Assembly (NCBI GenBank): GCA_963772435.1
Contig: CAVYXI010000018.1
Coordinates: forward strand, 607,793-671,792
Direction: 5' to 3'
DNA length: 64,000 nt
Source: an uncultured Gammaproteobacteria bacterium
GTDB taxonomy: Bacteria; Pseudomonadota; Gammaproteobacteria; Xanthomonadales; Rhodanobacteraceae
Below are positions 1 to 64,000 of this stretch, piece by piece. The stretch's first letter is position 1. The number at the start of each line of letters is the position of its first letter. The notes beneath the pieces were generated by a model. That model was not told where the DNA came from. It ran no database searches and worked only from the letters and a program-made list of their open reading frames with translations. The translations under genes were made by a program, and so were the position numbers.

Positions 1-560
1 ATTCGGCGGACGCCGCTTTCGCGCAGACGATGGCCGACCTGCTGCATAGCCCACGTTTTCGCGCCTACACGGGCAACGACATGATCGGCGCCGAACTCGG
101 CGGCGCGATGAAGAACGTGCTCGCGGTCGCCACCGGCGTCGCCGACGGCATGCACCTCGGACTCAACGCGCGCGCCGGCATGATCACGCGCGGCCTCAAC
201 GAGATGCTGCGGCTCGGCGCGGCGATCGGCGCGCGGCCGGAGACCCTGATGGGCCTCGCCGGACTCGGCGACCTCGTGCTGACCTGCACGGGCGATCTCT
301 CGCGCAACCGCCGCCTCGGCCTCGCGCTCGGTCGCGGCGTCGGCCTGCGGCAGGCCGTCGCCGAGATCGGCCAGGTCGTCGAGAGCATCGAGACCGTCGA
401 CACGGTGATGCGTCTCGCCGCCCGCCACGGCATCGAACTGCCGATCTCGCAGGGCGTGCAACGCGTGTTGCACGAGGAAATCACGCCGAAGGAAGGTCTG
501 CGGCAGTTGCTCGCGCGCGAGCAGAAGGCCGAATACCCGACGGGGATGTTCAAGCAATAG
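1..560 (+). CDS. gpsA: NAD(P)H-dependent glycerol-3-phosphate dehydrogenase, C-terminal part (5' end lies outside the window)
   Basis: The in-frame translation from base 1 (…[35 protein letters not shown]…[23 protein letters not shown]…) is a typical GpsA C-terminus. The stop is at 558-560. Confidence 0.9.
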
Positions 561-673
561 AACGCCCACGGGGTGCGACGCGCAGGGCGCCACCCTCGCG
601 CTGCGACGTATCGTTACTTGCAGGCCGCGCCGCGTTCGATCAGCAACGTGCGCGCGCATCCGCGCGGCCTGCG

Positions 674-1139
674 TTACGCGCCGCCGGCAAAACCCTGCTG
701 CCGCCACGCCTCGTAAACCACGACCGCGACCGCATTCGAGAGATTCAGGCTGCGATTGTCCGGGCGCATCGGCAAGCGCAGGCGCTGTGCCTCGGGCAAC
801 GCGTCGAGCAGCGTGCTGCGGCAAACCGCGCGTCTCCGGACCGAACACGACCGCGTCGCCGTCGGCATAGCGGACGTCGCTGTACCGAGTCCGTCCGCGC
901 GTCGACAGCGCGAATGTGCGCGAAGGTCCGACCGCGGCGGTGAACGCGTCGAGGTCGTCGTGGACATCGACCTCCGCAAACTCGTGGTAGTCGAGCCCGG
1001 CACGACGCAGCTTGGCATGGTCGAGATCGAAACCGAGCGGCCGGATCAGGTGCAGGCGTGCGCCGCTGTTCGCGCAGAGGCGAATCACGTTGCCGGTGTT
1101 CGGCGGAATCTCGGGCTGATAGAGGACGACGTGCAGCAT
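674..1139 (-). CDS. trmL: tRNA (cytidine/uridine-2'-O)-methyltransferase TrmL (SpoU family); frameshifted in this sequence
   Basis: From the ATG at 1139 the N-terminus reads MLHVVLYQPEIPPNTGNVIRLCANSGARLHLI…FGPETRGLPQ. The other frame gives the C-terminus …LLDALPEAQRLRLPMRPDNRSLNLSNAVAVVVYEAWRQQGFAGGA. The two frames are joined by an apparent 2-bp deletion near 805-812. Confidence 0.75.
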
Positions 1140-1314
1140 GCGGCGATTATCAACCCGCCACCCGTGCATCCGGAAGCTGCGCGGCGCGCAGGCGAGCGCC
1201 TGCGTCGCGTCACGCGGCGGGCTATGCCGCTTCCGCGGTGATGGCGAGTCAGTACGCGTGCCGGACTCGATCCACAAACGATCGAATCACTCGGCTCGCG
1301 CGTCCGCAGGGCGC

Positions 1315-1578
1315 TCAACGCGTGCCAGAGGTTTCGTCGATCTGCGTCGGCTCGCCGACGAAAACGTTCGCCTGATAGCAGATTCTGCGCGCTTTCGAAT
1401 GCGCATCCGCCACGCACGTGGGCGACACGCTGACCGCCGATATCGTCGGCAGCGATGACGCATAGGTATCGTCGGCGGTGCTGATCTGCGCCATCGCCTG
1501 CGCACCTGCCACGATGGCGAGCGTTACGCCGATTGCGACGAGGCTGCGACGCAGCGGTTGATAGACGTTCATGACCAT
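1315..1578 (-). CDS. small secreted hypothetical protein (signal peptide)
   Basis: An RBS aaggaga precedes the ATG (MVMNVYQPLRRSLVAIGVTLAIVAGAQAMAQ…). The product is about 88 aa with an N-terminal signal peptide. No family was recognised. Confidence 0.45.
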   Translation of the reverse strand: MVMNVYQPLRRSLVAIGVTLAIVAGAQAMAQISTADDTYASSLPTISAVSVSPTCVADAHSKARRICYQANVFVGEPTQIDETSGTR

Positions 1579-1851
1579 TCTCCTTTCGTATACTTTGCGA
1601 CTTTTCAACTTTGCAACTTTGTGATCTGTGAAGAGCAAGGGCTGTGCCAGCGGTCGGCGACGACGGTTCCTGCTGTTCAATTCGATGCACGATCAAGCGA
1701 TTAAGTTGCAGCGCCGACGAAAGTCATGACTTCCGGCATACGTTCATCGAGTGTCCGCGGACAGTGAGGTGTCCGCGATGATCGCGGCGCGAACACGCGT
1801 GGACAGCAAATTGTGAAACGTCGCTGCGACCGGCGCGTGGCGACGGCGCGA

Positions 1852-2577: not shown

Positions 2578-2707
2578 CGCATGCGCTCCGGCAACAATGG
2601 CGATACACACAAGTCTACGTCCGACTTTCGGCCATTGCGCGCTCTTTTGCGCTCGGCTAGGCTCGATTCCTTTTCTGTCACTCGCTCACTCGCCCAGGAG
2701 TTCGTCG

Positions 2708-5618
2708 ATGTCCATCGCCGCCGCCCGACCTTCCGACCGCATGCGCAAGGCACTATTCGGCTCGGTCGCCTTCGCGATCGCGCTTGCCGCGTCCGGTTGC
2801 GCGACCACGCCTTCCTCCTCCGCCCCGGCCCATCCGCCGGCGAAGGAAAGTGCCGCCGCGATCGACATCCCGTTCACGAAATTCCAGCTCGACAACGGCC
2901 TCACGGTCGTCGTGCACGAGGATCACAAGGCGCCGGTCGTCGCGGTCTCGATCTGGTACCACGTCGGCTCCGCCGACGAGCCCGCCGGCAAGACCGGCTT
3001 TGCGCACCTGTTCGAGCACCTCATGTTCTCGGGTTCCGAGAACCACAAAGGCACGTATTTCTCGCCGTTCGAGGTGGCCGGCGCGACCGACATGAACGGC
3101 ACGACCTGGTTCGATCGCACGAACTACTTCGAAACCGTGCCGACGACCGCGCTCGACATGGCGTTGTGGATGGAATCGGACCGCATGGGCCACCTGCTCA
3201 GCGCGATCGGCAAGACCGAGCTCGACACGCAGCGCGGCGTCGTGCAGAACGAGAAGCGGCAGGGCGAGAACCGCCCGTACGGCCGCACCGACGAAAACAT
3301 CCTGCTCAATGCGTTTCCGGCCAATCATCCGTATCAGCACGACACGATCGGTTCGATGGCCGATCTCGACGCGGCCTCTCTCGATGACGTGAAGCAATGG
3401 TTCCGCGACTACTACGGCGCGGCCAACACGACCGTCGTTCTCGCGGGCGACATCACGGCCGCGGTGGCGAAGGAGAAGATGCAGAAGTTCTTCGGCGACA
3501 TTCCGGCCGGTGCGCCGGTGCCGCGCCAGCAGCCGTGGGTCGCACCGCGCAGCACGTCGACGCGCGGCACGCAGCAGGACCACGTCGCGCAGGTACGCAT
3601 CTATCGCGAATGGAACGCGCCGCAACTCGGCGACGCCGAGAATCCGCTGCTCGATCTGGCCGCGACCGTGCTCGGTGGCGGCAAGACATCGCGTCTCTAT
3701 CAGCGCCTCGTCTACCAGGACAAGCTCGTCGACAACGTCTCGGTGCATCTGCAGACGTTCGCGCTCGCGAGCCAGTTCGAACTGCGCGCCGACGTGAAGA
3801 ACGGCGTCGACCCCGCGCAGGTCGAGGCGGCGGTCGCCGACGAGTGGGCGAAATTCCTCAAGGACGGCCCGACCGAGGATGAACTCGCTCGCGCGAAGAC
3901 ATCGGAGCGCGCGGGCTTCATCCGCGGCCTCGAACGCGTCGGCGGATTCGGCGGCAAGGCCGTCATCCTCGCGCAGAGCCAGGTCTATCTCGGCAATCCG
4001 GCCGCCTACAAGCTCGACCTCGAACGCACGGCCGCCGCGACGCCCGCGAGCGTGCTCGCCACGGCGCGCAAATGGGTCGCGCAGGGCGACTACACGCTGA
4101 CCGTCGTGCCCGCGAAGAAGGGTGCCGACCTCGCCGCCGAGGACAAGGCCGTCAAGGGCCTGCCCGAAGTTGCGGGCAAGCCGAAGCCCGTGCTGCCGGC
4201 CGAGAAAAAGTATACGACGGCGAAGAACGACGTCGATCGCAGCACGCGGCGTGCCCGCCGTCACGACGTTCCCCGACCTGACCTTCCCGGCGGTGCAGCG
4301 CGGCAAGCTCAAGAACGGCATCGAGGTGATCCTCGCCGAACGCCACGCGATTCCGGTGACGCACGTGCAGTTGCAGTTCGATGCGGGTTACGCCGGCGAC
4401 CAGGGCCGCAAGCTCGGCACGGCCAGTTTCACGGCGAGCATGCTCGACGAGGGCACGAAGACGCTCGATTCGATCGAGATCGCGAAGCGCGGCGAGCATC
4501 TCGGCGCGCTGATTCGCAACAGCGCCGGCCTCGACAGCTCGAGTTCTTCGCTCAACGCGCTCAATTCGGACCTGCCGGCCTCGCTCGAATTGTTCGCCGA
4601 CGTCGTGCGCAACCCCGCGTTCCGCGACGCCGACATCGAACGCATCCGCGCGCAGTGGCTCGCCGAGATCGGCCAGGAGAAGACGCAGCCGGGCGGCATG
4701 GCGCTGCGCACGTTGCCGCCGCTGCTGTACGGCAAGGATCACGCGTACGGCATTCCGTTCACGGGCACCGGCACCGAGGCCGCGATCAAGTCGCTCACCG
4801 CAGCGGACCTCGTCGCGTTCCAGAACGACTACCTGCGCTCCGACAACGTGAAGATTTTCGTCGCCGGCGACACGACGCTTGCGACGATCCTGCCGCTGCT
4901 CGACAAGGCGTTCGGCGACTGGGCCGCGCCGTCGTCCGCCGTGCCGAAGAAGAATCTGGCCCATGTCGACGCGCAGAAGAAGCCGCGCGTATTCCTGATC
5001 AACCGCGCCGATTCGCCGCAGTCGCTGATCCTCGCAGGCTCACTCGCGCCATCGACGACCGCACCGGACTATCTGCCCGTGCAGACCGCGAACGCCGTGT
5101 TCGGCGGCACGTTCACGTCGCGCCTCAACATGAACCTGCGCGAGAACAAGCGCTGGTCGTACGGCGCACGCTCGTCGGTGCAGGACGCGCTCGGCCAGCG
5201 TCCGCTGCTGCTGCAGGCGCCCGTGCAGACCGACAAGACCGCGGAGTCGGTCAGCGAGGCGCTCAAGGAAGTGCGCGCAGTCGCCTCGGACAACCCGCCG
5301 ACAACCGCCGAGATCGACAAGATCAAGGCGCAGCGCGTGCGCGCGCTGCCGGGCAGCTACGAGACGAGCGCAGCGGTGCTCGGCGCGCTCGCGACGAACC
5401 AGCTGTATGGCCGTCCCGACAACTACGTGCCGACGCTCAAGCAGAACATCGAAGCGCAGACGCAGGCGCAGGTCGACGCAGCGGCGAAGGAGATTTTCGT
5501 CCCCAACTCGCTGACCTGGGTCGTCGTCGGCGACTTGTCGAAGATAGAGAAGCCCGTGCGCGCACTCGGCATCGGCGAGGTCAAGGTGATCGACGCCGAC
5601 GGCAAGGTGGTTCGCTGA
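2708..5618 (+). CDS. M16 family zinc peptidase, two-domain PqqL-like, lipoprotein signal (LAASGC); frameshifted near 4243
   Basis: The HxxEH inverted zinc motif (HLFEHLMFSGS) is present. The protein aligns along its whole length with the downstream paralog at 6000-8843. There is a +1 indel after …KKYTTAKNDVDRS, and the second half continues in ORF 4122-5618. A cagg RBS precedes the ATG at 2708. Confidence 0.8.
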
Positions 5619-5773
5619 GCGGTTACGGCCGGGTTATACGCAAAATGACGCGGTACTCCGTCCGTCGCGCTACTTTCCCTTCTCCGGCTGGCGGGAGACA
5701 AAACGGCAAGGATTGCCGTTTTGCACGGCGGAGTCGCAGAAGGGGTGAATGTACGTGGCGCGCAGCGCCGGAT

Positions 5774-5856
5774 GAGGGTGGCACGGCCGAAATTGTCGGC
5801 GCAGGCGCCACCCTCACCCGCGCCTGCGGCGCGACCTCTCCCGCCAGCGGGAGAGG
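5774..5856. repeat. cluster of inverted repeats in the 380-bp spacer between the M16 paralogs (GAGGGTGGC-N24-GCCACCCTC; CCTCTCCCGC-cag-CGGGAGAGG)
   Basis: These are read directly in the sequence. The second is a 9-bp stem with a 3-4-nt loop. Their role is unknown; they may be a terminator or attenuator for the upstream paralog or a REP-like element. Confidence 0.4.
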
Positions 5857-5999
5857 TAAATGGTGCGGCCACGATTTGCCAACACGCAACCCGACAATGC
5901 GGTAGAGAACTCGATGGGCCAGAGCTCTCCGCAGAGTCGCCCGAGGCCCGCTGGTCGCTTTCGGCAGCGTGCGCTTGTCAGATGATAAGGAGAACGTCG

Positions 6000-8843
6000 A
6001 TGCATCGGCAGCAGTCCCTACTAAGGTCCATCGCGCTCGCGTGCGCGCTCGTCGCTCCTCCCGTGCTTGCCGATACGCCCGCGCCCGCGAAGATCGACAC
6101 GGTCGACCTGAAGTACGAGAAGCTCGAACTGCCGAACGGCCTCACTGTCATCGTCCACGAGGACCACAAGGCGCCGGTCGTCAACGTCGCGGTCTGGTAT
6201 CACATCGGTTCGGCCGACGAGCCGGCGGGAAAGACCGGTTTCGCCCACCTGTTCGAGCACCTGATGTTTTCCGGTTCGGAGAATCACCCGGACGGTTTCT
6301 TCAAGCCGTTCGAACTCATCGGCGCGACCGACCAGAACGGCTCGACCTGGAACGACCGCACCAACTACTACGAGACGGTACCGACGACAGCGCTCGATCT
6401 CGCGCTGTGGATGGAATCCGACCGCATGGGCCACCTGCTCGGCTTCATCGGCCAGAAGGAACTCGACACGCAACGCGGCGTCGTGCAGAACGAGAAGCGG
6501 CAGGGCGAGAACCAGCCGTACGGCCGCGTTGACGAGAACATTCAGGCGAACGCGTTTCCCGCGAATCATCCCTACCACCACGACACGATCGGCTCGATGA
6601 AGGACTTGAACGCGGCCTCGCTCGCCGACGTCAAGCAGTGGTTCCACGATCACTACGGCGCCGCGAATACGACCCTCGTGCTCGCCGGCGACATCACGCC
6701 CGCCGTCGCGCGCGAGAAGGCGCTGGCCTATTTCGGCGACATTCCTGCCGGGCCTCCCGTTGCCCGCCAGCAGCCATGGGTCTACGCACGCGACAAATCG
6801 ACGCGCGGCGAGATGGTCGATCAGGTCGCGCAGGTGCGCGTGTACCGCGAATGGAACGTGCCGCAGCTCGGCGATGCCGATGTGCCGCTGCTCGATCTCG
6901 CCTCCACGGTCCTCGGCGGCGGCAGGACGTCACGCCTGTACGAGCGCCTGGTGTACAAGGACAAGATCGCGGACGACGTCAGCGTTTCGATCTCGACGTT
7001 CGCGCTCGCAAGCCTGTTCGAGCTGCAGGTCGACGTGAAGAAGGGCGTCAATCCGGCGAAGGTCGAGGCGGCGATCGCGGATGAGTGGGCGAAGTTGCTT
7101 CGGGACGGCCCGAGCGAGGACGAACTCGACCGCGCCCGCGTACGCGCGCGCGCGCAAATGGTCCGCAACGTCGAGAAGGTGCTCTACCAGGGTTGGTTCC
7201 TCGCAGAAGGTCAGGTCTACCAGAACGATCCGAACGCCTACAAGATCGACTTCGCGCGCATGGATGCGGCGACGCCCGCGGCCGTGGCCGCGGCGGCGAG
7301 GAAGTGGATCGACAAGGGCGACTACACGCTGACGGTCAGGCCAGGCACGCCCGATCCTTCGAAGGACGAAGCCGAATCGGGCGGCCTCACCGCAGCCGAC
7401 GGCGCACCGAAGGCGGTGCTGCCGGCCGCGCACGAGTATACAACGGTAAAAAGCAGCATCGACCGCAGCAAGGGAGTGCCCACGGTCTCGACCTTCCCCG
7501 ACCTCAGCTTCCCGCGCCTGCAGCGCGGCAAGCTCAGGAACGGCATCGAGGTCGTTCTCGCTGAACGGCACGAGGTGCCGCTTGTGCAGCTCAATATCCT
7601 GTTCGATTCCGGCTACGCGGCCGACCAGGGTCGCAAGCTCGGCACGGCGACGTTCACTGCCGGCATGCTCGACGAGGGCACGAAGACGCTCGACTCGCTC
7701 GCCATCGCGCGCAGGCGCGAGCAGCTCGGCGCGAATCTCGGCGCCGGCTGCGACCTCGACACATGCCAGGTCGGCCTCAACAGCCTGAAGTCGCAGCTCG
7801 ATCCGTCGCTCGCGCTGTGGACGGACGTGCTGCGCAATCCCGCATTCCGCAAAGGCGACATCGAACGCGTGCGCGGCTTGCGCGTGGCGACCATCGCGCA
7901 GGAGAAGACCGATCCGGTCAGCCTCGCGCTGCGCACGTTGCCGCCACTGCTGTACGGCAAGGGCCATGCCTACGGCGTGCCGTTCACGGGCAGTGGCACC
8001 GTGGCGTCGGTGAAGTCCCTGAGCGACAAGGACATGCGGGCGTTCGTCGCCGACTGGTTCCGCCCCGACAATGCACGAATCATCATTGTCGGCGACACGA
8101 CGCTCGCCGAAATCACCGACAAGCTCAACGCGGTGATCGGCGACTGGTCTTCGCCGAACAAGCCATTGCCGAAGAAGAGTCTGCCAATCGCGCTCGCGCC
8201 GTCGAAGCCGCGCGTCTACCTGCTCGACCGGCCCGGTTCGCAGCAGTCGATGATCATCGCGGGCATCGTCGCACCGTCGACGCTGGCGCCGAACAACCTC
8301 GAGATCCGCACGATGAACAGCGCGTTCGGCGGCCTGTTCACGTCGCGCCTCAACATGAATCTGCGCGAGGACAAGCATTGGGCCTACGGCGCCGGCGCGT
8401 TCCTGCCGAACGCGCTCGGCCAGCGGCCCTATCTGATCTATGCGCCCGTGCAGACCGACAAGACGGCCGACTCGATGAAGGAAATGCTCAGCGAATCGCA
8501 GGCACTCGTGGGCGACAAGCCGCTCAGCGCAGCGGAGATCGCGAAGGTCAAGACGAGCGACGTGCGCGCGCTGCCCGGCGAGTTCGAGAGCGGCCAGGCG
8601 ATCGCGGGTTCCGTGCAGGGCATCGTCGTCTATCACCGGCCCGATGATTACGTGCAGACGCTGAAGGCACGCACCGAGGCGCAGAAGGACGGCGACGTCG
8701 AGGCGGCCGCGAAGGAAGTCGTCAAACCGAACGGCCTCACCTGGGTCGTCGTCGGTGATCGCAAGCAGATCGAGAAATCCGTACGCGAGCTGAAGATCGG
8801 TGACATCGAAGTGCTCGATGCCGACGGCAACGTTGTAAAGTGA
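6000..8843 (+). CDS. M16 family zinc peptidase, two-domain PqqL-like, secreted; intact paralog
   Basis: The product is 947 aa. An RBS aaggag lies 8 bp upstream of the ATG at 6000. The signal peptide is MHRQQSLLRSIALACALVAPPVLADTPAP. The HLFEHLMFSGS motif is present. Confidence 0.9.
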   Translation: MHRQQSLLRSIALACALVAPPVLADTPAPAKIDTVDLKYEKLELPNGLTVIVHEDHKAPVVNVAVWYHIGSADEPAGKTGFAHLFEHLMFSGSENHPDGFFKPFELIGATDQNGSTWNDRTNYYETVPTTALDLALWMESDRMGHLLGFIGQKELDTQRGVVQNEKRQGENQPYGRVDENIQANAFPANHPYHHDTIGSMKDLNAASLADVKQWFHDHYGAANTTLVLAGDITPAVAREKALAYFGDIPAGPPVARQQPWVYARDKSTRGEMVDQVAQVRVYREWNVPQLGDADVPLLDLASTVLGGGRTSRLYERLVYKDKIADDVSVSISTFALASLFELQVDVKKGVNPAKVEAAIADEWAKLLRDGPSEDELDRARVRARAQMVRNVEKVLYQGWFLAEGQVYQNDPNAYKIDFARMDAATPAAVAAAARKWIDKGDYTLTVRPGTPDPSKDEAESGGLTAADGAPKAVLPAAHEYTTVKSSIDRSKGVPTVSTFPDLSFPRLQRGKLRNGIEVVLAERHEVPLVQLNILFDSGYAADQGRKLGTATFTAGMLDEGTKTLDSLAIARRREQLGANLGAGCDLDTCQVGLNSLKSQLDPSLALWTDVLRNPAFRKGDIERVRGLRVATIAQEKTDPVSLALRTLPPLLYGKGHAYGVPFTGSGTVASVKSLSDKDMRAFVADWFRPDNARIIIVGDTTLAEITDKLNAVIGDWSSPNKPLPKKSLPIALAPSKPRVYLLDRPGSQQSMIIAGIVAPSTLAPNNLEIRTMNSAFGGLFTSRLNMNLREDKHWAYGAGAFLPNALGQRPYLIYAPVQTDKTADSMKEMLSESQALVGDKPLSAAEIAKVKTSDVRALPGEFESGQAIAGSVQGIVVYHRPDDYVQTLKARTEAQKDGDVEAAAKEVVKPNGLTWVVVGDRKQIEKSVRELKIGDIEVLDADGNVVK

Positions 8844-8976
8844 CAGGCACCTTTACAAGCGGCGCCACCAAAGGCGGCCCGCGACAATCGGTACCGTCGC
8901 GCGCGCAAGGATGACGCAGGCGGCATGACCGCCTGCATCCCCCGTGCCTTCGAGCATGTCCTCGAGCGATTGCGCC

Positions 8977-9384
8977 ATGAAGAAATGTTTTCTTGCCCTG
9001 CTCTGCCTCGCCATCGCGCCGACGGCCTGCACCTGGGTCGATCCGAGCGCGGGCGGCACCGACGTGCGCGTGGTCTATGACGGCAGCGTCAGCGGCTGCC
9101 GCGACGCGGGCCAGGTCGGCGTCTCCGTGGCCGACAAGGTCGCGTTCTATCATCGCAGCGACCTCAAGGTGCGCGACGAACTCGAGACGCTGGCGCGCAA
9201 CGAAGCCGCGACCCTGCCCGCCGATACGATCAAACCGCTCGACGAGCCGCACGACGGTGCGCAGCATTTCCAGGCCTATGTCTGCGGACGTACGCTCGCG
9301 AAAAAGCGCGACGTCGCAGGAGACACGCTGCCCTCGGCGACGAGCGGCGAGACGCAGACGTTTCCGGTCAAGGAACACCGCTAG
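8977..9384 (+). CDS. small lipoprotein of unknown function
   Basis: MKKCFLALLCLAIAPTAC is a lipobox signal. The product is about 135 aa. Confidence 0.6.
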   Translation: MKKCFLALLCLAIAPTACTWVDPSAGGTDVRVVYDGSVSGCRDAGQVGVSVADKVAFYHRSDLKVRDELETLARNEAATLPADTIKPLDEPHDGAQHFQAYVCGRTLAKKRDVAGDTLPSATSGETQTFPVKEHR

Positions 9385-9667
9385 GGTCCACTCGATCCCG
9401 CAAAAATCCGCTCTGTTCCGAAGCCACGCCAATTTCCTTGCCACTCGCTCCGCTCGCAAGGCTGCGCCGCGCCCAAAGCGGCGCTCGACGGTCAGCGTTC
9501 CTGACTACACCGACACCCGCGCACGAGAACCGACGCGAGACACCACTGCCTTGCCTCCATGCTGGGCATCTCAGCGGCATGTTCGGAGCGTTGACGCCGA
9601 CGCGTGATCTTACGATGATGCAGTGCAGCGAACCCGTCGGGATCGCTCGAAAAGGATGCCGCGCTGC

Positions 9668-54449: not shown

Positions 54450-54469
54450 TCGCGAGGAGTCGAACCGTA

Positions 54470-54551: not shown

Positions 54552-55817
54552 TTACTCCGGCTGCGCGACACCGTCAGGCCACACTTTTCGATTCGGATCG
54601 AACTCGAACGTTTCGCACTCGGGTCCGCGGTGACCGAAGCCGACAACGGCAAGCGGACTTTCAACGAGCGGGTCGAGGCCGAAAGCCTGCTCGACGTCGA
54701 TCTCGTTCATCGCTGCCGTGATAAATGCACCCAGACCAAACTCGGTCGCCGAGATGTAGAGCGTTTGCGAGAGGTGTCCCACGTCCAGAATTGCAACGCG
54801 ATAGGCCTTGTTGTGGTTGCGGTATTTCCAGAACGTGCGCGGAAAGCGCGATGCGAGAACGATCATCACCGGCGCGTTCATGTAGTAATGCTGCGCTGCG
54901 ACCATGAGCCGCGCGAGCACTGTTAAGTCGCCATCCTGCGGCGGCGACAGAGGCTCCAGCGCGTGATCGATCGTGTGGTAGTGATATAGCCCCGGCGCGA
55001 TGCCATCGACGCGCTGCACGAGGAGATATGCCTCTGTCGGATGCAGACCGCCGCCGGACGGACTCGTGCGCTTGATGACAACGTTGTCCGCGTGAATTTC
55101 GTATGCCGCCTGCGCGCCGAATACGCGGCGCATGATATGCGAAAAAGTTGCGCTGTCGAGACTCTTCGACGAATCGAAATTGCGGCAGGTCGCACGACGC
55201 GCAAGCAGGTCGTCGATCGCCGTAGGTTCCGTCTGCGGAAGGGCAATGCGCGCCGCAGGCGGCCCGCAATCGAGCACGTGCGATGGCGGCTGACCAAGAC
55301 GCTCGAACAGCTCCGTCATCGAACAAAGGCTTGCATTGATAGTATCTTCGCCGGAAAGAACACCGCGCCAGCGACCGAAGTAATGCGATACCGCAGAGTG
55401 CGCCTGCCAGTTGCCGTCTCGCAATAGGTCATCGCGCGCACGCATATCGGACGATGCTTCGTCGTCGCCTATCAGCAGCCCTTTGGCCAACAAATCACGA
55501 ATCAGTTCCTCGCCGAAGCGCGTTGCGAGGCCATCGAATTCCGTCCAGTGCGCCGCAACCAGATTGCGGAGTAGATTTGCTTCGGCGTCCGTCACACCGA
55601 CTTCCTTGCCCAGATGCGGCGCCAGAGCTAGAAGCTCGATACGCGCATCTAGTCCATCGCCACCATGGGCGAGCGACTCCAAACTGAATTCGAGTTTCTC
55701 GCGAGGCTCGAGAAGCAAGATGGCACAACGTTTTATTCGCACGGGCAGACATTCCGATGACTCGGCGCGCAAGTTTCGCACGATACTGCCCACTGACAGC
55801 TGACTTCGCTTTGGCAT
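54552..55817 (-). CDS. SagB/ThcOx-type FMN dehydrogenase ('putative peptide maturation dehydrogenase')
   Basis: It has the nitroreductase-fold SagB signature [16 protein letters not shown]. The ORF is intact and encodes 421 aa (start MPKRSQLS; MRLSLRAR 42 bp upstream is an alternative). It is divergent from the small precursor-like gene. Confidence 0.8.
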
Positions 55818-56094
55818 TGCGATCTGTCGGCGCACCCGAGCCCGAAGCGACAGCCGCATGCCTTGCTGTGTCCAGGTTGTCGGACAAAGCAATCATCAAG
55901 CAAGTGCACAGGTGCTGACCGATATGCTGCTGGCGACCATGGGCTACCAACCCCACAAACCTCAGGCCAATTAGCAGCGGCTCCGACTCGCCTTGCGGTG
56001 CAAAGTCGATCGGCCATTCCCAAGCAAGTTGTTGCGCGAATCGGCGCTAGGTACACTGCTGGCGCACGCATCGTGCGGCCTCTTTGGGGGATTT

Positions 56095-56361
56095 ATGGCA
56101 GGGACAAAACTGACACCGGATCTGGTCGACAAGCTGCTGGACAAACTCGCGACCGACGATTCGTTTCGCGAAGCGTTCGACAAAGATCCGACTTCTGCGA
56201 TGCATCAAATCGGCGCGCCGAAGGATTTTGATTGCGGGATCTGCACACGACCCGAGCCGATGGCTTCGAAGGAGCAGTTCAGACGTAGCCGCGACGCGTT
56301 CCGTCAAACATTGCTCGGCCAAACCGCACTCAGCGTCTTCACGCTGAAAACGCCGCGATAG
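56095..56361 (+). CDS. 88-aa putative modified-peptide precursor (Nif11/NHLP-like leader)
   Basis: A strong RBS tgggggat precedes the ATG. The leader MAGTKLTPDLVDKLLDKLATDDSFREAFDKDPTSAMHQIGA resembles Nif11/NHLP leaders. The core begins PKDFDCGICTRPEPM…. The gene is flanked by the SagB-type dehydrogenase and the cyclase-TPR gene. Confidence 0.7.
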   Translation: MAGTKLTPDLVDKLLDKLATDDSFREAFDKDPTSAMHQIGAPKDFDCGICTRPEPMASKEQFRRSRDAFRQTLLGQTALSVFTLKTPR

Positions 56362-56371
56362 GCATTGACGA

Positions 56372-59026
56372 TCAAGCTCGGCTCAAAAGGCTTTTGAGCC
56401 GAGCGCCGATGCTGGCGGGCAGCTTTTCCTGTGGCCATGCCGCTTTGAATTGATCGAGTGCTTTGTGCGATTCCTCATCTCGTCCGAGCTTGCGGCTGAT
56501 TTCAGCTGTACGCAGCAACGCGAGATTGGATTCGATTACGTTGCGCGCCTGCAAAAGCTGGGAACTATTCCATTCCAGATATGCGCGCCCGCGGTTCTTG
56601 ACCAGCCAGTTTGCTGACTTCGCCGCGTCTTCGTACCGTCCCGCTGCAGTGTAGGCGTCCGCGAGTGCGACGTGGGTCAGGTACAGTTCGGTGCCATCAA
56701 CTGTCGGCAGGAGCCGTGCAATTGCATCCTGTGGCCTGCCCTCGCGCGAGAATAGCTCGGCTTCGACGATCGCCAGCAGATGCTCCAAGTTCGGAAATCC
56801 GCTTGCGCGGGCCTGCGGTGTCGCGGCCGTCAATGCAGCTTGCGCCGCCGTGTAGTCTTCTGCCCGCGCAAGAAGGTAAGCCCCGTACAACACGGCGAAC
56901 ACGTCGTCGTCATGATTTGTGGCGACTGACTGATCCATCGCTTTGCGCGCATCCGCAGTGAATTCCCGCGCCGCCGCCGCCTGGCGTGAAATCGGTGCGA
57001 AGTAGTCATCGATGCTCAGTTCAATGCCACGTCCAACTAGCGCATATCTGCCCCCGACGCTGACGGCAGCTTTTGCGTAGTCGGCTGCCTTGAGGCGCGC
57101 CACGTCCCAACTGCCTTCGTCGAGGTGCAACGTAACGATCGCTTGCGGCGCCGCCAGATCTGCGGCCGGTATGCCGGAGGCTTTCACTTTTTCGAGCAAC
57201 TGCGCTGCTTCCGCAAATCGGCGCTCGGCAGCAAATGAGTTCGCATGAAAAATTCCCTGTGCAGTATGTCCGAGCGATTCGGCTCTGCGAAAATTCTGCT
57301 GCGCTTCGCCGTATTGACCCATCGCCGCCTGCAATGAAGCGAGCGTATAAAACGCGGAGCCGCGGAAAGGATCGTGTTCGGAAAGTGCAGGACTGATGGC
57401 CTTCGCTGCCTCCTCATACCGGTTCTCGTATTGCCACGAGAAGTTAGCGACGTTGTTTGCCGCCGCGTAGTAGTCGGGATAGAGCTTACCAAGCAGTTGC
57501 CACTTGTCGATCATCGGACCCGGTGGCCCGAAGTTGCTGAGCCAAGCATCGACATAAAGCTGGTCGCGAGGCGAAAGGCGATCCTTGAGGGCCCCCGCCT
57601 TGTGTGCGTACTCGTAGGCAGACGCATCCGCATTGTTGTTTACGTAGACGCGCGCCATGCCCATGTATGCGAGTGCGAAGTTTTCGTCGAGTTCGATCGC
57701 ATGGCGAAAAAGACCGAGCGCATCCGCACTTCTTCCGCCAGCCAGGGCCTGCAGACCCAACGAGTAACTGCGCAACGCATCGAGGTTGGAAGTCGTCACT
57801 TTCGGCAACGGCGCATTGTTCGCCTCAATCGACGCCACCGCTTCGCCAAGCCGGCCACGCAGTTCGCCCGAGACCTTGCCGACCGAAGGAAGAATCGAAT
57901 CGAGTCCGATGCCGTCTGCGGTCCCGGCGTACACGGTTGCCTGCGTATGCGGATCGACCACTTCGGCGGTCACGCGCACGCGACCACCGATTTCGGCCAC
58001 GCTCGGCAGGATGAGTGCGCGCGCGCCTTCGCGTAGCGCGATTTCGTAGCCGATCTCGCGATCGATCTTCGTGCCACCGGGTTTCTGCATGCGCTTGAGC
58101 GCGTCGCTTACCTGCAGGCTCGAAACGAGATTGACGATAGCGCGACTGCTCGAGGCTCGACGCGAAACGCGGTATCCAGCGAGTCGTCGAGCACGCCCTG
58201 GCCGGTCTGGTTTCGCAGGTCGCCGACGACGACCCAGTCGCGTTCGGCAAATGCGATCGCAGGCGGACTGCGCAGCGAGAAATAGGCGGGGACCGCGATC
58301 GCGGTGATCACGACCGCCGCTTCGACGAACAGCATGCCCGGGCGGCGCCACCACGGAATCTCACGGTGAGCCTTGCCGGTCCACGCGGGCGCACGGAACG
58401 GCGCGACGCCTTCCTCGCCGACTTCATGCACCTGCACGGGCTCGGGCACACCCTTGAACCGATAGTTGCCGTGCGCCTGCCAGCGCACGCGCGAATCCAT
58501 TTCGCCCAATTCGGAGCGCGCGCGCTGCGCGAGCGTGCTTGCCATGCCCGAGAGCAGGATCTGGCCGGGCCGCGCGATGCTCATGATGCGCGCGGCCGTC
58601 GGCTTGACGAGGCCTTCGACTTCGACGGGCTTGGCGCCGCGCGCGACGTCGTGCGCGTTGTTGTCCCAGATGACGACGTCGCCGACGTGGATGCCGATGC
58701 GTGCCGCAAGCGGCAGCGATTCGGTTTTGCTCAGCGCACGCAGTTCAGCGCTGGTAGTCGAGCGCGAACGCGACCGCGTGGACCGGTCGCTCGAACAGGA
58801 TCAGGAAGCCATCGGTCTTGTCGATCTCGCGGCCGTGGTGGCGTTCGACGAGGTCGCGGGCGAGACGGTCGTGCTGGCGCATGACTTCGGCACCGCGCTG
58901 GTCGCCGAGCTTCTCGACGAGGGCGGTGCTGTCGGCGAGATCGCAGATCACGAGCGTGCGCAACACGGGCGCAGGCATGGCCCGATCCGGCAGTCCGACT
59001 GGCAGCTCGTTCGCTATCGCGTTCAT
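56372..59026 (-). CDS. class III adenylate/guanylate cyclase domain – TM – TPR fusion protein ('putative peptide modification system cyclase'); 2 frameshifts
   Basis: The N-terminal cyclase domain is VLRTLVICDLADSTALVEKLGDQRGAEVMRQHDRLARDL…GIHVGDVV. A TM segment (MLFVEAAVVITAIAVPAYF) follows. A ~650-aa TPR-rich C-terminus follows that. The protein is split over ORFs 58745-59158, 58108-58584 and 56372-58354. Confidence 0.8.
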
Positions 59027-59284
59027 ACGTTCGCCGTATAACGCAGGGCCGGCCCTGGACTTCAGGGACGAGACAAACGACATTCCCCCGCTGGACTGAG
59101 GATTTTGCGCGAAATCAATGCGGTTGGCCAGCGGATGTTGCGACGCAACGAACCGCAATATTCGCCATCCCCGGACCGGCCGCCAACCCTGGATGCCGGC
59201 CTTCCGACCTCGCGGCGCGCTTCGATACGCGGCGCGGAGCCAGCACCCCGAAGTTGCGGCTGCGTCGGCCGCCGCGATTTGCCG

Positions 59285-60312
59285 TCAGGCTCGTCCTTCT
59301 AGGAAGCGACGCCACCCGTGCGCCAGGCGTCCCCACCCTCGCCCTTGGCGGCATAGAGTGCGCGGTCGGCCTCGCTGTACCAGGTCGACCAATCGGCACG
59401 TTCGTCGCACAGGTTGGCACCGACGCTGACGGTGAGCGACACCATGTCGTGTGGCGGCGTCAGCTGCAGCGAACGCACTGTGGCCACGATGTTGCGCGGC
59501 GCGTTTGGCGAGTTCGGCGATGTCGTCGAGCTGGACGAGCATCGCGAACTCGTCGCCGCCGAGACGGCAGCAGAGTTCGCAAGTAGCCGACACTGCGGCA
59601 GAGTTCGTCGGCGACCGGCAGAGCGAACGATCGCCGACGAGATGGCCGAACTGGTCGTTGATCGTCTTGAAACGGTCGAGGTCGACGAGGAAGCAGCGCC
59701 AGCCGCGTGCCCGGCCATGCGCTGGTCGGCGAGGTCTTCGAGGAACTGATAGAGGCCGCGACGGTTGGTCAGGCCGGTCAGTTCGTCGGTGCGCACGAGG
59801 TTGTTCGCGTTCGTCAGCATCGTCTGCGTCTGCCGCAGCGAGTGCAGCGTCGAGATGCAGATCTTCGTTGCGACGCTTCAGATTGGCGATCAGCTGTTGC
59901 TCGCTTGCGACGAGGTAGGTGAACGAGCGACGCATGAATTTCGCGAGCAGCAGCGGTTCGCTCGCCAGCAGGTTCTCGAAGCCGGCCTGGTCGATCACGC
60001 GCAGCTGGCTCGTCCGTCGTCGCGATCGCGCTGGCGACGCGCTCGTGGTCGCCGATGAACAGGGCCAGTTCGCCGAGGAATTCGCGTTCGCCGATCAGCT
60101 TCGTGCGAGGCCGTCGCCGAATTCGAGATGGATTTCTGCCGCTCTCGATGACGAACATGCTGCGGCCGAGTTCACCCTTGCGGAAGATGGCTTCACCCGG
60201 CGCGAACGCTGCGCGCCTGTCCGGCGGCGCGGAACAGGTTGAACTCCGCTTCGGAAAGTTGGCGCGGCAGTGTCGTAGCTGCGGCCTTTTCGTCGGGCGT
60301 GTTCGGACGCAT
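59285..60312 (-). CDS. cyclic-nucleotide-binding domain + GGDEF diguanylate cyclase; several frameshifts
   Basis: The cNMP-binding part is …FVIESG…LIGEREFLGELALFIGDHERVASAIATTD. The GGDEF part is …RTDELTGLTNRRGL…CRLGGDEFAMLV…RALYAAKGEGGD. Confidence 0.65.
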
Positions 60313-60594
60313 CCGCTGCGTCCGGTGATATGGGCAAGGCGACGGCACTCTTCCCCTGTAGCGACACGCGCATCCTTCGCGAATCATCTTATGCGAATCG
60401 CTGCCGCTGTCCCATCGGCCAGACGCGATTGGCCGGGTGAAAACGTTTTCACCGGCCAATTTCCGACAGACGGCGCGAATTGGCGGTTACTCGGGATATC
60501 GGTATCGGGCTTATCTCGACCCGATACCACGGGTGGCGAGAAATCGCGCTCCGCCGTCCTCTGACGGCCTATCCGAGCGAGGTCGCCTGGTCTC

Positions 60595-61898
<1,304 letters not shown>

Positions 61899-61976
61899 GC
61901 GGTTCCTTGGACGACGATCGGGGTGAGGGTATGCGCCGCGATACAGCCGCGGCTTTTGGTGCAGGGGAAACGGGTT

Positions 61977-62336
61977 TCAGGTTTCGACGACGGCGCGCGT
62001 CGAGGCAACGTCGGTATAGACCGTTTCAGCGAGCTGGCGAGCCGCCCCGAGCAGGCGCGTGCGCGCGTCGATGCCGGCGGCGGGCAGACGTTCTTCGACG
62101 CTGAGGATCGTCGAATCGAACAGCGCGAAATCGATCGGCCGGCCGTCATCGAGCGCATGACGGTCGTCGGTGAGCCAGGCACGAAGCTGCGCTTGCGCGG
62201 GTTCACTGGTCGCCGCGACCGACCTCGCGAGCAGCGACGCCACGCAGCGATCGACGCAGTCGGTGAATTCGCTGTGCGTGACCGCCGGTGATGGCATCTG
62301 CGCGATGGCCTGCTCGTGGTTCGTTGCCGTGTCCAT
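61977..62336 (-). CDS. hypothetical protein (119 aa) upstream of aceA
   Basis: Its GC3-rich codon usage is consistent with a real gene. No family was recognised. Confidence 0.35.
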   Translation of the reverse strand: MDTATNHEQAIAQMPSPAVTHSEFTDCVDRCVASLLARSVAATSEPAQAQLRAWLTDDRHALDDGRPIDFALFDSTILSVEERLPAAGIDARTRLLGAARQLAETVYTDVASTRAVVET

Positions 62337-62380
62337 ACTCGTATGTATGCTCGGATGCTGCAGAGCAACACTAGGCTCTT

Positions 62381-62490
62381 CAAAGATGTATTTGACAAAC
62401 TGAATGTTTCAATCTAATTATTTGACAATGTCAAATCGTAGTTCAAATTCATTGAATTCAAAACCAATGTCAACGACCACTTGAAAAGAT
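62381..62490. promoter_or_regulatory. AT-rich divergent promoter/operator region between the 61977-62336 gene and the LysR gene, with palindromes TTTGACAaTGTCAAA (62421-62435) and TTGAATTCAA (62452-62461)
   Basis: This is a sharp local GC drop in a ~67% GC background. It contains repeated TTGACA motifs and two palindromes. Confidence 0.5.
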
Positions 62491-63517
62491 CCAAAGTCGG
62501 AACGCGCGAACGAAAGCGCTGCATGCCAAGCGTACGGCGGAAAGGGCGCACGCGGCGCGGCGCCTGCGCGGTTCTACTACAAGGGGAATCGGCTCAAGCA
62601 GCTGCGTGCGTTCTGCTACGCGTCAAATTCGGCAGCGATCGCGCGCGCGGCGGAATCGCTGTTCCTGTCGGCGTCGTCGGTGAGCCTGCAGTTGTCGGCG
62701 CTCGAAATCGAACTCGAGGACGCGCCTGCTCGAACGCACGCGTCCGCGCCTGACGCTGACCCACGAAGGACAGCTGCTCTACGACCTCGCACGCCCGCTC
62801 GTCGAAGGCATGGAGAATCTCGATCAGCAGTTTCGCCAGCAGCGCGGCGGCGTCCAGGGCCGTCGAGGTGCATATCGCCGCGGGTGCATCGACGATCCAG
62901 TACCTGCTGCCGCCGCTGGTGCGCGACTATCGCGAGCGTCATCCCGACGTGCGCCTGCAGCTCGCCAATGTCACCGGCAAGGACGGCCTGGCCTTGCTGC
63001 GGTCGGACGAGGTCGACTTCGCGGTGGGCTCGATGCTCGACGTACCCCACGATCTCGTCTACGAACCGGTGCAATGGTTCGACCCGATGCTGATCCTGCC
63101 GCCCGGACCACGCGCTCGCCGCCAAGACCGAACTATCATCTCGCGGATCTGTCGCCTTACGGACTGATCCTGCCGCCGCAGCGGCTGACGACGTATCGCA
63201 TGATCGATCTCGTCTTCCAGCAGGCGCAAGGTGCCGTATCACGTCGCGATCGAAGTCGGCGGCTGGGAAGTGATCAAGCAGTACGTCGCGATGGGTCTCG
63301 GCATTTCGATCGTCACCGGCATCTGCATCGGCGATCAGCGATTCCGAGCGCCTCGTCGTGCGCAACATGCGCCGCTATTTTCCGCAGCGCAGCTATGGCG
63401 TCGTGATGCGCAAGGGAAAGTACCTGAGTGCGCAGGCGCGCGCATTCATCGATCTCGTCAAGCCGGGGCTGTTCGCGCGCCGCGACTACTACGAGGCGGG
63501 ACATTCGGATCGCTGAA
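62481..63517 (+). CDS. LysR family transcriptional regulator divergent from aceA; multiple frameshifts, start uncertain
   Basis: The HTH is …YKGNRLKQLRAFCYASNSAAIARAAESLFLS…. The substrate-binding domain is …LLPPLVRDYRERHPDVRLQLANVTGKDGLALLRSDEVDFAVG…. These are spread over three frames. Confidence 0.65.
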
Positions 63518-63764
63518 GGCAGCGGCGACGCGGGCGTCCGCGCGTCGACAGAACCCGGAGCCGCTGCAGATGTGCCGTATGCAGCGGCTCCGGGCGGGGC
63601 CGCGCCGAAGCGCGGACCACCAACCAAATCCGATGACGCCGGCACGCGCCCCGGATGAAGCCTAACCGAGTCGAACAACGCAGTGGTTAAGGTTTTGTAG
63701 TCGATCGCAGATGTATCATTGTATACAATGCGGCATTTACGAATGATTCATGCAAGTGAACGAG

Positions 63765-64000
63765 TCACTCGGCGTCGTTGCCCGTCATTGGTACGCCACC
63801 ATTCGGCGGCGGTGGTGCGCCGCGCATACCCGGGCGCGGGCCGCCTCGCGCATGCGGTCCGCCTGGGCCCATGTGCATCGCGTTGCGCGAGGTGCCATTC
63901 GGCGAATTTGCGATAACCCTCATCGCCGAGCAGCTTGCGCAAGCTCGCATCGGTCGCATCGTCAGCGCGTTCGCGCTCTGCGCGCGACCTCTGCTGCAAT
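63765..64000 (-). CDS. C-terminal part of a Gly/Pro-rich periplasmic protein (possibly Spy/CpxP-like); the 5' end lies outside the window
   Basis: …LRKLLGDEGYRKFAEWHLAQRD… is followed by …MGPGGPHARGGPRPGMRGAPPPPNGGVPMTGNDAE*. There is a frame change within this piece. Confidence 0.3.
   Translation of the reverse strand, partial: CSRGRAQSANALTMRPMRACASCSAMRVIANSPNGTSRNAMHMGPGGPHARGGPRPGMRGAPPPPNGGVPMTGNDAE

Follow-up and report, generated by a model that had tools for sequence, protein, structure and literature searches.

The window analysed here, a 64,000-nucleotide stretch of a 1.3-Mb bacterial contig, contains about 100 sites at which a gene changes reading frame, and these frameshifts are very probably errors of the deposited consensus rather than mutations in the organism. 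An indel-rich assembly had been the preferred explanation in the initial annotation, and it is supported by the lesion spectrum, selection on the affected genes, their stop codons, the intact syntenic orthologues and the positional density of the lesions.

Frame changes in the window

Tracking of codon usage in all six frames with a Viterbi procedure revealed that the coding frame changes dozens of times on the same strand, one frame following the other without intervening non-coding sequence. Lesions were counted by frameshift-aware protein-to-DNA alignment to intact orthologues, and extra sites came from alignment to the closest relative, which is about 96% identical: 15858 and 16092 in hupE, 19844 and 20198 in ubiJ, 23308 in yajQ, 39911 in the YDP protein and three further sites in iorB, for which the protein-to-DNA alignment gave two lesions in the N-terminal part. 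The two switches in hupE and the two in ubiJ were also seen by eye. The total comprises 97 lesions in the main catalogue and 5 later additions (Table 1). Gene order is conserved for most of the window across three related contigs taken together, namely L081 (JGI metagenome, 92% identical to the window), L084 (ENA contig_109808, ~87% nucleotide identity) and L089/L090 (both ENA contig_109809, ~96-98% identical in most bins); these references are metagenome assemblies too and are not error-free.

Each of the 22 genes listed earlier as changing frame does so, including the worked examples of trmL (near 812) and M16 copy 1 (near 4244), and the genes called intact (ureC, M16 copy 2, the 696-aa hydrolase, MocR, the halogenase and comM) are intact ORFs. 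The switches counted per gene were real, but several of the numbers were too low (IOR, ~13 against at least 5; gltD, 8 against ~6), and aceA and cNMP-GGDEF likewise hold 10-11 lesions apiece. The stitched conceptual TrmL, UbiB, TruC, YajQ and IOR proteins match curated NCBIfam models in one stretch across the junctions. Residues 1-151 of TrmL correspond to profile positions 2-152, UbiB scores 703 bits against a cut-off of 667 bits, and residues 10-1168 of IOR align to profile positions 8-1173 with 1614 bits, spanning 11 junctions.

Table 1. Dense blocks, lesion-free tracts and affected genes of the window. For the three genes marked "frame tracking only", the evidence is weaker, as it comes from the codon-usage frame tracker by itself.
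Feature	Position	Strand	Lesions or content
Dense block 1	24827-27516		~13 frameshifting indels, ~0.5% per base; inside IOR
Dense block 2	40649-46274		~36-40 frameshifting indels, ~0.7% per base; gltD and gltB
Dense block 3	58136-63336		~30 indels; 5' part of cyclase-TPR, cNMP-GGDEF, aceA, LysR
Longest lesion-free tract	4245-15857		11.6 kb; M16 copy 2 and ureDABCEFG, all intact
Lesion-free coding tract	46275-50527		4.25 kb; P-II, BMFP, comM, most of xdhC
trmL	675-1137	-	one +1 near 812 (frame tracking and NCBIfam)
M16 peptidase copy 1	2633-5615	+	one +1 at 4244; junction aligns seamlessly to paralogue copy 2
hupE/ureJ	15749-16345	+	two +1: 15858, 16092
ubiJ	19733-20423	+	two +1: 19844, 20198
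ubiB	20421-22090	+	one -1 at ~21855
truC	22097-22800	+	one +1 at 22477
yajQ	22960-23447	+	one +1 at 23308
IOR (fused indolepyruvate:ferredoxin oxidoreductase family gene)	24652-28186	-	~13: ~7 +1, ~4 -1, 1-2 +2
DUF3108-like gene (name from initial annotation; no NCBIfam match)	28278-29072	-	one switch near 28829 (frame tracking only)
SPFH/flotillin-like gene	30818-32797	+	one switch near 31184 (frame tracking only); Band_7 domain in downstream ORF
Tandem-repeat "Asp-box" protein	33008-33871	-	three switches near 33328, 33387, 33713 (frame tracking only)
lldD-like FMN dehydrogenase	38249-39445	+	one +1 at 38967
"YDP" secreted protein	39627-40370	-	one +1 at 39911; L089 orthologue intact, 323 aa
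gltD	40536-41957	-	eight +1: 40650, 40704, 40839, 41026, 41259, 41530, 41757, ~41954 (7-8 in protein-to-DNA alignment)
gltB	42116-46619	-	~27-30; none in 43193-44109
xdhC	49724-50799	+	two +1: 50528, 50643
mocA	50795-51398	+	one +1 at 50892
iorB (molybdopterin subunit)	52184-54449	+	52430 (-4), 52710 (-1), 52782, 52839, 52858 (+1 each); other 1.55 kb clean
Cyclase-TPR gene	56372-58978	-	three +1: 58136, 58158, 58747, all within 5' 850 nt; 3' 1.76 kb an intact ORF
cNMP-binding GGDEF gene	59314-60297	-	10: 8 +1, 2 -1
aceA (isocitrate lyase, ICL)	60598-61897	-	11: 9 +1, 2 -1
LysR regulator	62548-63513	+	six +1

Lesion density along the window

The lesions are strongly clustered. Lesion-free tracts of up to 11.9, 5.4, 5.3 and 4.3 kb lie beside blocks in which a lesion occurs every 140-200 nt, and at least three block edges fall within genes (cyclase-TPR, iorB and IOR). 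Dense block 3 begins inside the cyclase-TPR gene, and the first 670 nt of IOR (27517-28186) are clean and lie outside dense block 1. Lesion density tracks position rather than gene identity. The longest lesion-free tract provides the internal control, representing the low-error state of the sequence.

If the whole contig were unpolished, raw long-read noise would strike at one random rate, and the many genes affected across the entire 64 kb and the isolated single lesions in clean regions (trmL, M16 copy 1, ubiB, yajQ) would fit such uniform noise. A Poisson distribution is rejected, however, by a variance/mean ratio of 6.0 in 2-kb bins (p = 4e-24), and if lesions were as frequent as in block 2, with one every 140 nt, the 4.25-kb clean tract that directly adjoins this block would have a probability of about e^-30. 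Moreover, comparison with the closest relative showed no excess of mismatches alongside the indels. Uniform noise can thus be given hardly any credence. Consensus errors in two quality states, as proposed here, suit the distribution better: most of the sequence is accurate, with ~0.03% frameshifting lesions per base, and three blocks of ~3-6 kb together with a few small clusters carry ~0.5-0.7% spurious bases.

Lesion type and sequence context

The 97 catalogued lesions consist of 76 +1, 4 +2 and 12 -1 events and 5 ambiguous ones. Insertions thus make up 80 of the 92 typed lesions (~87%), nearly all of one base; the insertion:deletion ratio is ~6.7:1, and events of 1 nt account for 91%. All lesions of dense block 2 are +1 except two -1 (42227 and 45470) and one +2 (44130), and comparison of gltD and gltB with the 96%-identical relative gave 33 +1, 2 -1 and 1 +2 in addition to ordinary in-frame 3n indels.

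As claimed initially, the lesions are not confined to homopolymers: within 6 nt of the lesions, maximal run lengths equal the background (p = 0.54). The inserted base stood beside an identical base in 13 of 52 cases, compared with 54% expected (p = 4e-5), and in 5 of 32 cases with a closer reference. Among 27 unambiguous insertions, 19 were complementary (Watson-Crick) to the base on their 5' side, compared with 11.5 expected (p = 6e-4). A borderline excess of insertions at codon boundaries was also found (14/27, p = 0.06; 11/18, p = 0.02). This non-random context, complement and codon boundary alike, is a point against consensus errors. No shared slippery or stimulatory motif was seen at the lesion sites.

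The spectrum bears on whether the frameshifts are real, inactivating mutations of a genome undergoing reductive decay, be it host-restricted or otherwise under relaxed selection. Such recent pseudogenisation would account for the over-dispersion of lesions among genes, since dead genes gather more of them, for the 10-30 lesions in some genes, and for several long stretches without clear coding signal. In the pseudogenes of Burkholderia symbionts, 300 insertions and 396 deletions were counted (0.76:1), with a mean deletion of ~19 nt (PMC6054270), and the insertion share of the window departs from that spectrum with a binomial p = 4e-18. The window resembles the leaf-nodule Candidatus Burkholderia in having many frameshifted genes, several of them multiply, with intact neighbours; it differs in a large excess of insertions over deletions, nearly all of 1 nt, in dN/dS that is not raised, in at most two nonsense codons, both doubtful, and in the positional pattern of lesions (PMC6054270). 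Together with the evidence below, this makes pseudogenisation very unlikely.

Selection and stop codons in the frame-corrected genes

The broken genes, once frame-corrected, evolve as the intact ones do. Against L089/L090, dN/dS was 0.082 for gltB, 0.077 for gltD, 0.099 for ubiB and 0.034 for yajQ (pooled broken genes, 0.122), compared with 0.076 for comM and 0.054 for ureC (pooled intact genes, 0.101). Against L084 the values were 0.077 (gltB) and 0.055 (ICL) for broken genes and 0.083 for comM, and against L081 they were 0.080 for the N-terminal part of gltB and 0.082 for comM. Despite ~27-30 lesions, gltB shares 97% of its amino acids with the closest relative, and so does frame-corrected aceA with L084. 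Purifying selection on the broken genes is therefore retained, not relaxed.

No in-frame stop was found in gltB (1,485 codons), ICL, GGDEF or lldD; in gltD and in iorB there is a single doubtful stop, so that at most two were seen. Substitutions usually outnumber indels by roughly 7-10:1. With this ratio, 27 neutral indels in gltB should be accompanied by ~200 substitutions, an extra dN of ~0.045 and several stops, whereas the total dN of gltB is 0.014 with zero stops. These missing substitutions, and block edges that cut through cyclase-TPR, iorB and IOR, argue against pseudogenisation.

Purifying selection on the corrected sequence, as if the products were still made, and the non-random insertion context would also suit extra bases that are real in genes kept functional by programmed ribosomal frameshifting, transcriptional slippage or single-nucleotide RNA editing. 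Against such correction stand the lack of a shared motif, the density of up to ~30 sites per gene, with some spacings of just 9-18 nt, the absence of the sites from relatives at 92-96% identity and the block-wise distribution that cuts through genes. We know of no bacterial mechanism by which single nucleotides outside homopolymers are removed from mRNA. This alternative has scarcely any probability at all.

Possible origin of the proposed consensus errors

Artificial frameshifts and pseudogenes arise in long-read assemblies (PMC12007338, PMC9262707), and raw PacBio reads carry ~8% insertions, 3% deletions and 1-1.7% substitutions, uniformly spread (PMC7671305). As in such assemblies, single-base indels break conserved genes of the window into successive ORFs that lie in different frames, the indel density is uneven along the contig, the orthologues in relatives are intact, and full-length proteins are recovered when a reference is used for comparison. 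In consensus errors of the kind proposed, the spurious base would almost always be one extra base between non-identical neighbours. An extra base shifts the frame, and therefore conserved genes read as chains of short ORFs with the protein continuing in another frame. The extra bases probably stem from a long-read error or a consensus process, in either case one prone to insertions.

The insertion-dominated, substitution-poor and roughly context-free, homopolymer-independent spectrum resembles that of PacBio continuous long reads, a likeness of sequence that cannot name the platform. It appears to fit Nanopore errors less well, as the best-documented of these are errors of homopolymer length and mostly deletions, whereas the lesions of the window avoid homopolymers and are ~87% insertions. 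That the spectrum is unlike the best-known long-read artefact, homopolymer deletion, speaks against consensus errors. An inserted base complementary to its neighbour was not found described in the long-read error literature examined.

The blocks may reflect consensus calling or polishing on too few reads, or mixed reads of co-occurring relatives. Indel errors arise when close variants are collapsed (PMC8445201), and the block-wise frameshifts resemble such allele or strain collapse. A single metagenome assembly, ENA ERZ26871208, contains two contigs ~96% and ~87% identical to the window, and therefore close lineages of the clade co-occur in one sample; collapse may have affected the window likewise. 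Retention of both alleles of a SNP was considered and rejected: about 5 of the 11 insertions at codon boundaries would require alleles that encode different amino acids (such as AAG/AAC and CAG/CAC), in a gene whose dN/dS is 0.08.

Relatives, taxonomy and the IOR locus

Orthologues of the broken genes, where covered by the relatives, are all intact ORFs except IOR (L090) and possibly truC. That relatives at 92-96% identity are intact counts against pseudogenisation. In another related contig, L083, frameshifts occur at other positions and also affect comM, and gltB and IOR are similarly fragmented in public long contigs from other taxa; both observations favour consensus errors.

The genome is not that of a Burkholderia, the group to which the initial annotation likened a possible decay: the nearest named proteins belong to Rudaea, Arenimonas, Lysobacter and Xanthomonadaceae, by which the organism is a Rudaea-like member of the Xanthomonadales. 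The fallback of a host-restricted, Burkholderia-type decay is accordingly unsupported, with the wrong taxon and a misfitting mutational signature. Pseudogenisation would moreover have struck gltBD, ubiB, ubiJ and aceA in a lineage of free-living soil type, and no transposase was found among the ORFs and conceptual proteins examined in the window, a further difference from Candidatus Burkholderia.

In true pseudogenes, deletions would exceed insertions, indels would be larger and many substitutions and stops would accompany them, and the IOR locus of the closest relative appears to fit this description. There, mismatches amount to 12-28%, together with 88 indels 1-8 nt in length, whereas the flanks differ by 1-5%. 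IOR, which holds one of the dense blocks, is thus degraded in the closest relative too, a point for pseudogenisation and against consensus errors. Since that locus looks truly decayed, gene loss occurs in the clade, and there may be some real biological instability at the IOR locus.

Frame switches lie within continuous genes

The G+C content of the window is 66%, and noise in a simple GC3 frame plot prevented strand calling. Since long spurious ORFs are found everywhere at this composition, the frame was followed with a seven-state Viterbi tracker (six frames plus non-coding), whose codon-usage model had ten long open frames as its training set. Over the whole window, the frame changed dozens of times on the same strand without a non-coding stretch in between. 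All 22 genes named as frame-switching in the initial annotation were confirmed, and the switches it placed near 808 in trmL and near 4243 in M16 copy 1 were directly visible at about 812 and about 4244. At the M16 junction, 'DVDRS' runs on as 'GVPAVTTFPDL', and the intact paralogue has the matching 'SIDRSKGVPTVSTFPDL'. The two genes are tandem PqqL-like M16 peptidase paralogues with ~61% amino acid identity, and the lesion is in the first only.

When the translated segments were joined at the Viterbi junctions, the resulting conceptual proteins, including the fused indolepyruvate:ferredoxin oxidoreductase (IOR), matched curated NCBIfam models in one stretch across the junctions, as listed in the table. 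In tblastn searches with intact GltB and GltD from other gammaproteobacteria, the matching segments hopped between frames. A purpose-written frameshift-aware protein-to-DNA aligner was then used with intact orthologues as references. Changes of 1-2 bases, added or removed, gave full-length proteins collinear with the family, with alignments spanning residues 1-1488 of GltB and 1-431 of isocitrate lyase (ICL, the aceA product). The same alignments upheld the frame switches and showed several of the per-gene counts in the initial annotation to be too low. The aligner found zero lesions (frame-breaking small indels; +1, one extra base; -1, one missing) in P-II, BMFP, comM, iorA, nitroreductase, arfB and acyltransferase. 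The frame switches are true gene continuations.

Where lesions lie in close groups (-1/+1, +2/+1 or three +1), the original frame returns 20-75 nt further on. The ORF around such a group is otherwise open and has only a short stretch out of frame, and screens based on ORFs overlook these stretches.

Reference loci, broken genes and other features, in window coordinates
Feature	Position	Lesions	Spectrum, match or identity	Source or basis
L081 (related locus)	45552-52791		92.4% identity	JGI metagenome, 7.2-kb contig
L084 (related locus)	37.3-63 kb		about 80-88% identity	ENA ERZ26871208 contig_109808, 112 kb
L089 (related locus)	37900-54449		95-99% identity in most 500-nt bins	ENA ERZ26871208 contig_109809, 130 kb
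L090 (related locus)	6480-28492		95-99% identity in most 500-nt bins	contig_109809, as L089
gltB		27	23 +1, 2 +2, 2 -1	protein-to-DNA alignment
gltD		7-8	all +1	protein-to-DNA alignment
IOR		about 13	about 7 +1, 4 -1, 1-2 +2; stitched residues 10-1168 on profile 8-1173, 1614 bits, 11 junctions crossed	NCBIfam (profile match)
aceA (ICL)		11	9 +1, 2 -1	
cNMP-GGDEF		10	8 +1, 2 -1	
LysR		6	all +1	
cyclase-TPR		3	all +1	
xdhC		2	both +1	
iorB, N-terminal part		2	+2, -1	protein-to-DNA alignment
hupE		2		
ubiJ		2		
mocA		1	+1	
lldD-like		1	+1	
ubiB		1	-1; stitched protein 703 bits, cut-off 667 bits	NCBIfam (profile match)
truC		1	+1; stitched protein matched in one stretch	NCBIfam (profile match)
yajQ			stitched protein matched in one stretch	NCBIfam (profile match)
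trmL			stitched residues 1-151 on profile 2-152	NCBIfam (profile match)
DUF3108-like, flotillin, Asp-box				frame tracker only
M16 copy 1	2633-5615	1	+1	
M16 copy 2	5721-8843			
DUF3995	14649-15086			
696-aa hydrolase	16412-18499			
'YDP' secreted protein	39627-40370			
Nitroreductase-like	54552-55892			
P0241 (349-aa IOR fragment)	25930-26979			
Frame-regaining groups	26338-26395; 42986-43043; 44110-44130; 52782-52858			
Dense block 1 (IOR)	24.8-27.5 kb	one per 140-200 nt		
Dense block 2 (gltD, gltB)	40.6-46.3 kb	one per 140-200 nt		
Dense block 3 (5' part of cyclase-TPR to LysR)	58.1-63.3 kb	one per 140-200 nt		
Lesion-free tract	4244-16095	0 in 97-lesion list	slightly shortened by later hupE site, 15858	
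Lesion-free tract	33713-38969	0 in 97-lesion list		
Lesion-free tract	46271-50528	0 in 97-lesion list		
Lesion-free tract	52712-58136	0 in 97-lesion list	slightly shortened by three later iorB sites, 52782-52858	

Close relatives carry intact orthologues

The initial annotation had drawn a parallel with Burkholderia, and this did not hold, as all named best matches were Xanthomonadales. The best named matches of comM were Rudaea MAG proteins (about 80-82%), those of gltB were Xanthomonadaceae and Rhodanobacter, and those of IOR were Arenimonas, Lysobacter and Rudaea. The relatives originate from environmental metagenomes, and two contigs of ERZ26871208 show that related lineages of the clade co-occur in one sample. 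On the relatives' contigs the gene order is kept, and the covered orthologues of the broken genes are intact ORFs, IOR in L090 excepted. The intact orthologues are 1487-1488 aa for GltB, 474-476 aa for GltD, 755 aa for IorB, 557 aa for UbiB and 323 aa for the YDP protein; UbiJ, YajQ, HupE, XdhC, MocA, LldD, ICL and GGDEF are also intact. None of the +1 sites was shared with the relatives, which makes the indels private to this assembly, a check that the initial annotation had proposed. Programmed frameshifting or recoding found no support, as the contexts are heterogeneous with no conserved slippery or stimulatory motif and none of the relatives has the sites.

Frameshifts were also seen in L083, another related contig (JGI 3300044699, 115 kb) on which gltB, gltD and comM are all fragmented. 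These are of mixed sign, and their positions differ from those in the window except for sites in ambiguous variable stretches. When the genome collection was scanned with a gltB segment, all the relatives found were distant (<=82%) and had no synteny past gltBD, and the best match in a metagenome scan with a clean cyclase-TPR segment was only 73%.

At the IOR locus of L090 (L090:300-3900, about window 25000-28500) the mismatch rate was 12-28%, and there were 88 indel events, of both signs and 1-8 nt long, which gives roughly eight substitutions per indel. Its flanks differed by only 1-5%, and gene calls within it were short fragments only. Judged by its sequence, this locus resembles a genuine pseudogene of some age or an allele acquired by exchange. 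It shows what a truly decayed or exchanged pattern is in this clade and, in contrast, the lesions of the window are nothing like it. IOR is also among the three lesion-dense blocks of the window. In the C-terminal region of truC (22600-22730), several -4, -3 and -1 gaps were found against L090, with a dN/dS of 0.54 and a truC call of 198 aa in L090; these may be errors or real changes in the relative itself.

Frame-corrected genes are conserved as functional genes

Against L089/L090, frame-corrected gltB had 97.1% amino acid identity, a dN/dS of 0.082 and no in-frame stops in 1485 codons, and frame-corrected gltD had a dN/dS of 0.077. Pooled, the broken genes had a dN/dS of 0.122 and the intact genes one of 0.101. 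Against L084 the values were 0.077 for gltB, 0.055 for ICL and 0.083 for comM, and against L081 they were 0.080 for the N-terminal part of gltB and 0.082 for comM. In neutrally evolving bacterial DNA, each indel is accompanied by roughly 7-10 substitutions. At this ratio the 27 gltB lesions would be expected to bring ~200 extra substitutions, an extra dN of ~0.045 and several nonsense codons; the dN observed in gltB was 0.014 in total. In dN/dS and stop codons the broken genes resemble functional genes, without an evolutionary trace of function loss.

Most lesions are single-base insertions in an unusual context

The 97 catalogued lesions comprised 76 +1, 4 +2 and 12 -1 events and five ambiguous ones, and five more were added later. 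Insertions outnumbered deletions 80:12, and 91% of the events were 1 nt. In gltD and gltB together, comparison with the closest relative gave 33 +1, two -1 and one +2, with ordinary in-frame 3n indels in the same alignment. Genuine pseudogenes of reductively evolving Burkholderia symbionts contain 300 insertions and 396 deletions, the latter averaging ~19 nt (PMC6054270). Their deletional bias and longer deletions differ from the insertion-dominated single-base spectrum of the window (80:12 versus 300:396, p = 4e-18).

The statement in the initial annotation that the lesions also lie outside homopolymers was borne out, since the longest run within 6 nt was the same as background (p = 0.54). 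An inserted base stood beside an identical base in 13 of 52 cases (25%, versus 54% expected, p = 4e-5), which is rarer than chance, and the closer reference gave 5 of 32. Homopolymer slippage of the Nanopore R9, 454 or Ion Torrent type was rejected on these background-level runs and under-represented identical neighbours. In gene orientation, the inserted base was the Watson-Crick complement of its 5' neighbour at 19 of 27 unambiguous sites (11.5 expected, p = 6e-4). Such insertions create GC, CG or AT dinucleotides (+1 sites in 38967-52858 and 15858-23308). None of the known error models was matched to this context pattern.

Insertions at codon boundaries were in borderline excess (reference L084, p = 0.02; reference L089/L090, p = 0.06). 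This codon-phase preference may derive from a G/C context preference at wobble positions. INDEL errors can also come from collapsing nearby allelic variants (PMC8445201). Retention of both alleles of strain SNPs in the consensus was rejected, as many codon-boundary insertions would imply non-synonymous alleles.

The extra bases could also be truly in the DNA of working genes, with isolated nucleotides skipped or removed in transcription or translation by a new mechanism. This would explain purifying selection in genes with up to ~30 insertions as well as the non-random insertion context, and we consider it highly improbable.

Lesion density follows contig position

The lesions were strongly clustered, with a variance/mean ratio of 6.0 in 2-kb bins (p = 4e-24), and a single uniform error rate was rejected. 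Within cyclase-TPR, three lesions fell in the first 850 nt and none in the other 1.76 kb; iorB had five in the first 700 nt and none in the other 1.55 kb, and the first 670 nt of IOR was lesion-free. These within-gene edge contrasts were picked after the data were seen and are consistent across the three genes. Lesion density tracks contig position, not gene identity. Possible recruitment of reads from related populations by highly conserved genes fits the dense blocks at gltBD, aceA and IOR, and does not fit cNMP-GGDEF and LysR.

Local gene content

From 54450 to 57400 the G+C content is lower (0.59-0.61) and the codon usage atypical, and the frame tracker called this region mostly non-coding, with the nitroreductase-like ORF and the 3' part of cyclase-TPR intact within it. 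L089 does not align to the region and iorAB is missing from L084, and therefore local gene content varies among close relatives. The urease cluster has the order ureDABC-EF-x-G-hupE, with the same arrangement in L090; a 146-aa membrane protein, named DUF3995 in a relative, lies between ureF and ureG. A repeated (W/Y)YDPxxSGEG motif is common to the 'YDP' secreted protein and the C-terminal part of the 696-aa hydrolase; the hydrolase had no family match in Pfam or NCBIfam. No tRNA genes were found in the 64-kb window.

On L082, a 303-kb ENA scaffold, the genes for aceA, malate synthase and LysR come immediately after comM, and ubiB, ubiJ and truC lie within a few kb beyond them, which brings together genes that are far apart in the window. 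Its 716-aa ComM/YifB homologue (L082:10001-12151) has the Mg_chelatase/AAA domains listed twice, which points to duplication within the gene or to an error of assembly.

Origin and consequences of the frameshifts

Intact relatives, private lesions, preserved selection and position-bound density supported the indel-rich assembly favoured in the initial annotation, and from the sequence comparisons the frameshifts are very probably an assembly or consensus indel artefact. Its fallback, reductive decay, was rejected, since spectrum, selection, distribution and taxonomy all spoke against it. In the 64 kb, no transposase came up on general inspection of ORFs and conceptual proteins.

Artificial frameshifts and pseudogenes are a known product of long-read assembly (PMC12007338, PMC9262707). 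The errors described for Nanopore consensus sequences are mainly homopolymer indels (PMC9262707), whereas PacBio continuous long reads carry ~8% insertions, 3% deletions and 1-1.7% substitutions in a uniform spread (PMC7671305), and the spectrum of the window is nearer to the latter. Nanopore-only soil MAG pipelines combine low-coverage assembly with a single polishing round (PMC12313526); the window was not traced to such a project.

Many GltB and IOR matches in the public collection were 300-600-aa fragments on contigs of 0.1-3 Mb, which suggests that long-contig assemblies commonly contribute frameshift fragments to public protein sets. P0241, which is publicly indexed and includes one short out-of-frame stretch, is already a cluster representative in a protein collection. 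On annotation of this contig, about 22 genes would wrongly be called pseudogenes, and spurious short proteins would be listed by the dozen. The distinctive signature (+1, outside homopolymers, in blocks, complement of the neighbour) could help to diagnose a failed polishing or consensus step, and the value of the finding lies in this fingerprint of consensus error and in the warning for annotation.

As biology, the frameshifts are not a real feature. They give no sign that the genome is decaying, that the bacterium is restricted to a host or that it has lost glutamate synthase, ubiquinone synthesis or the glyoxylate shunt, and metabolic reconstructions of this genome should rest on the frame-corrected genes.
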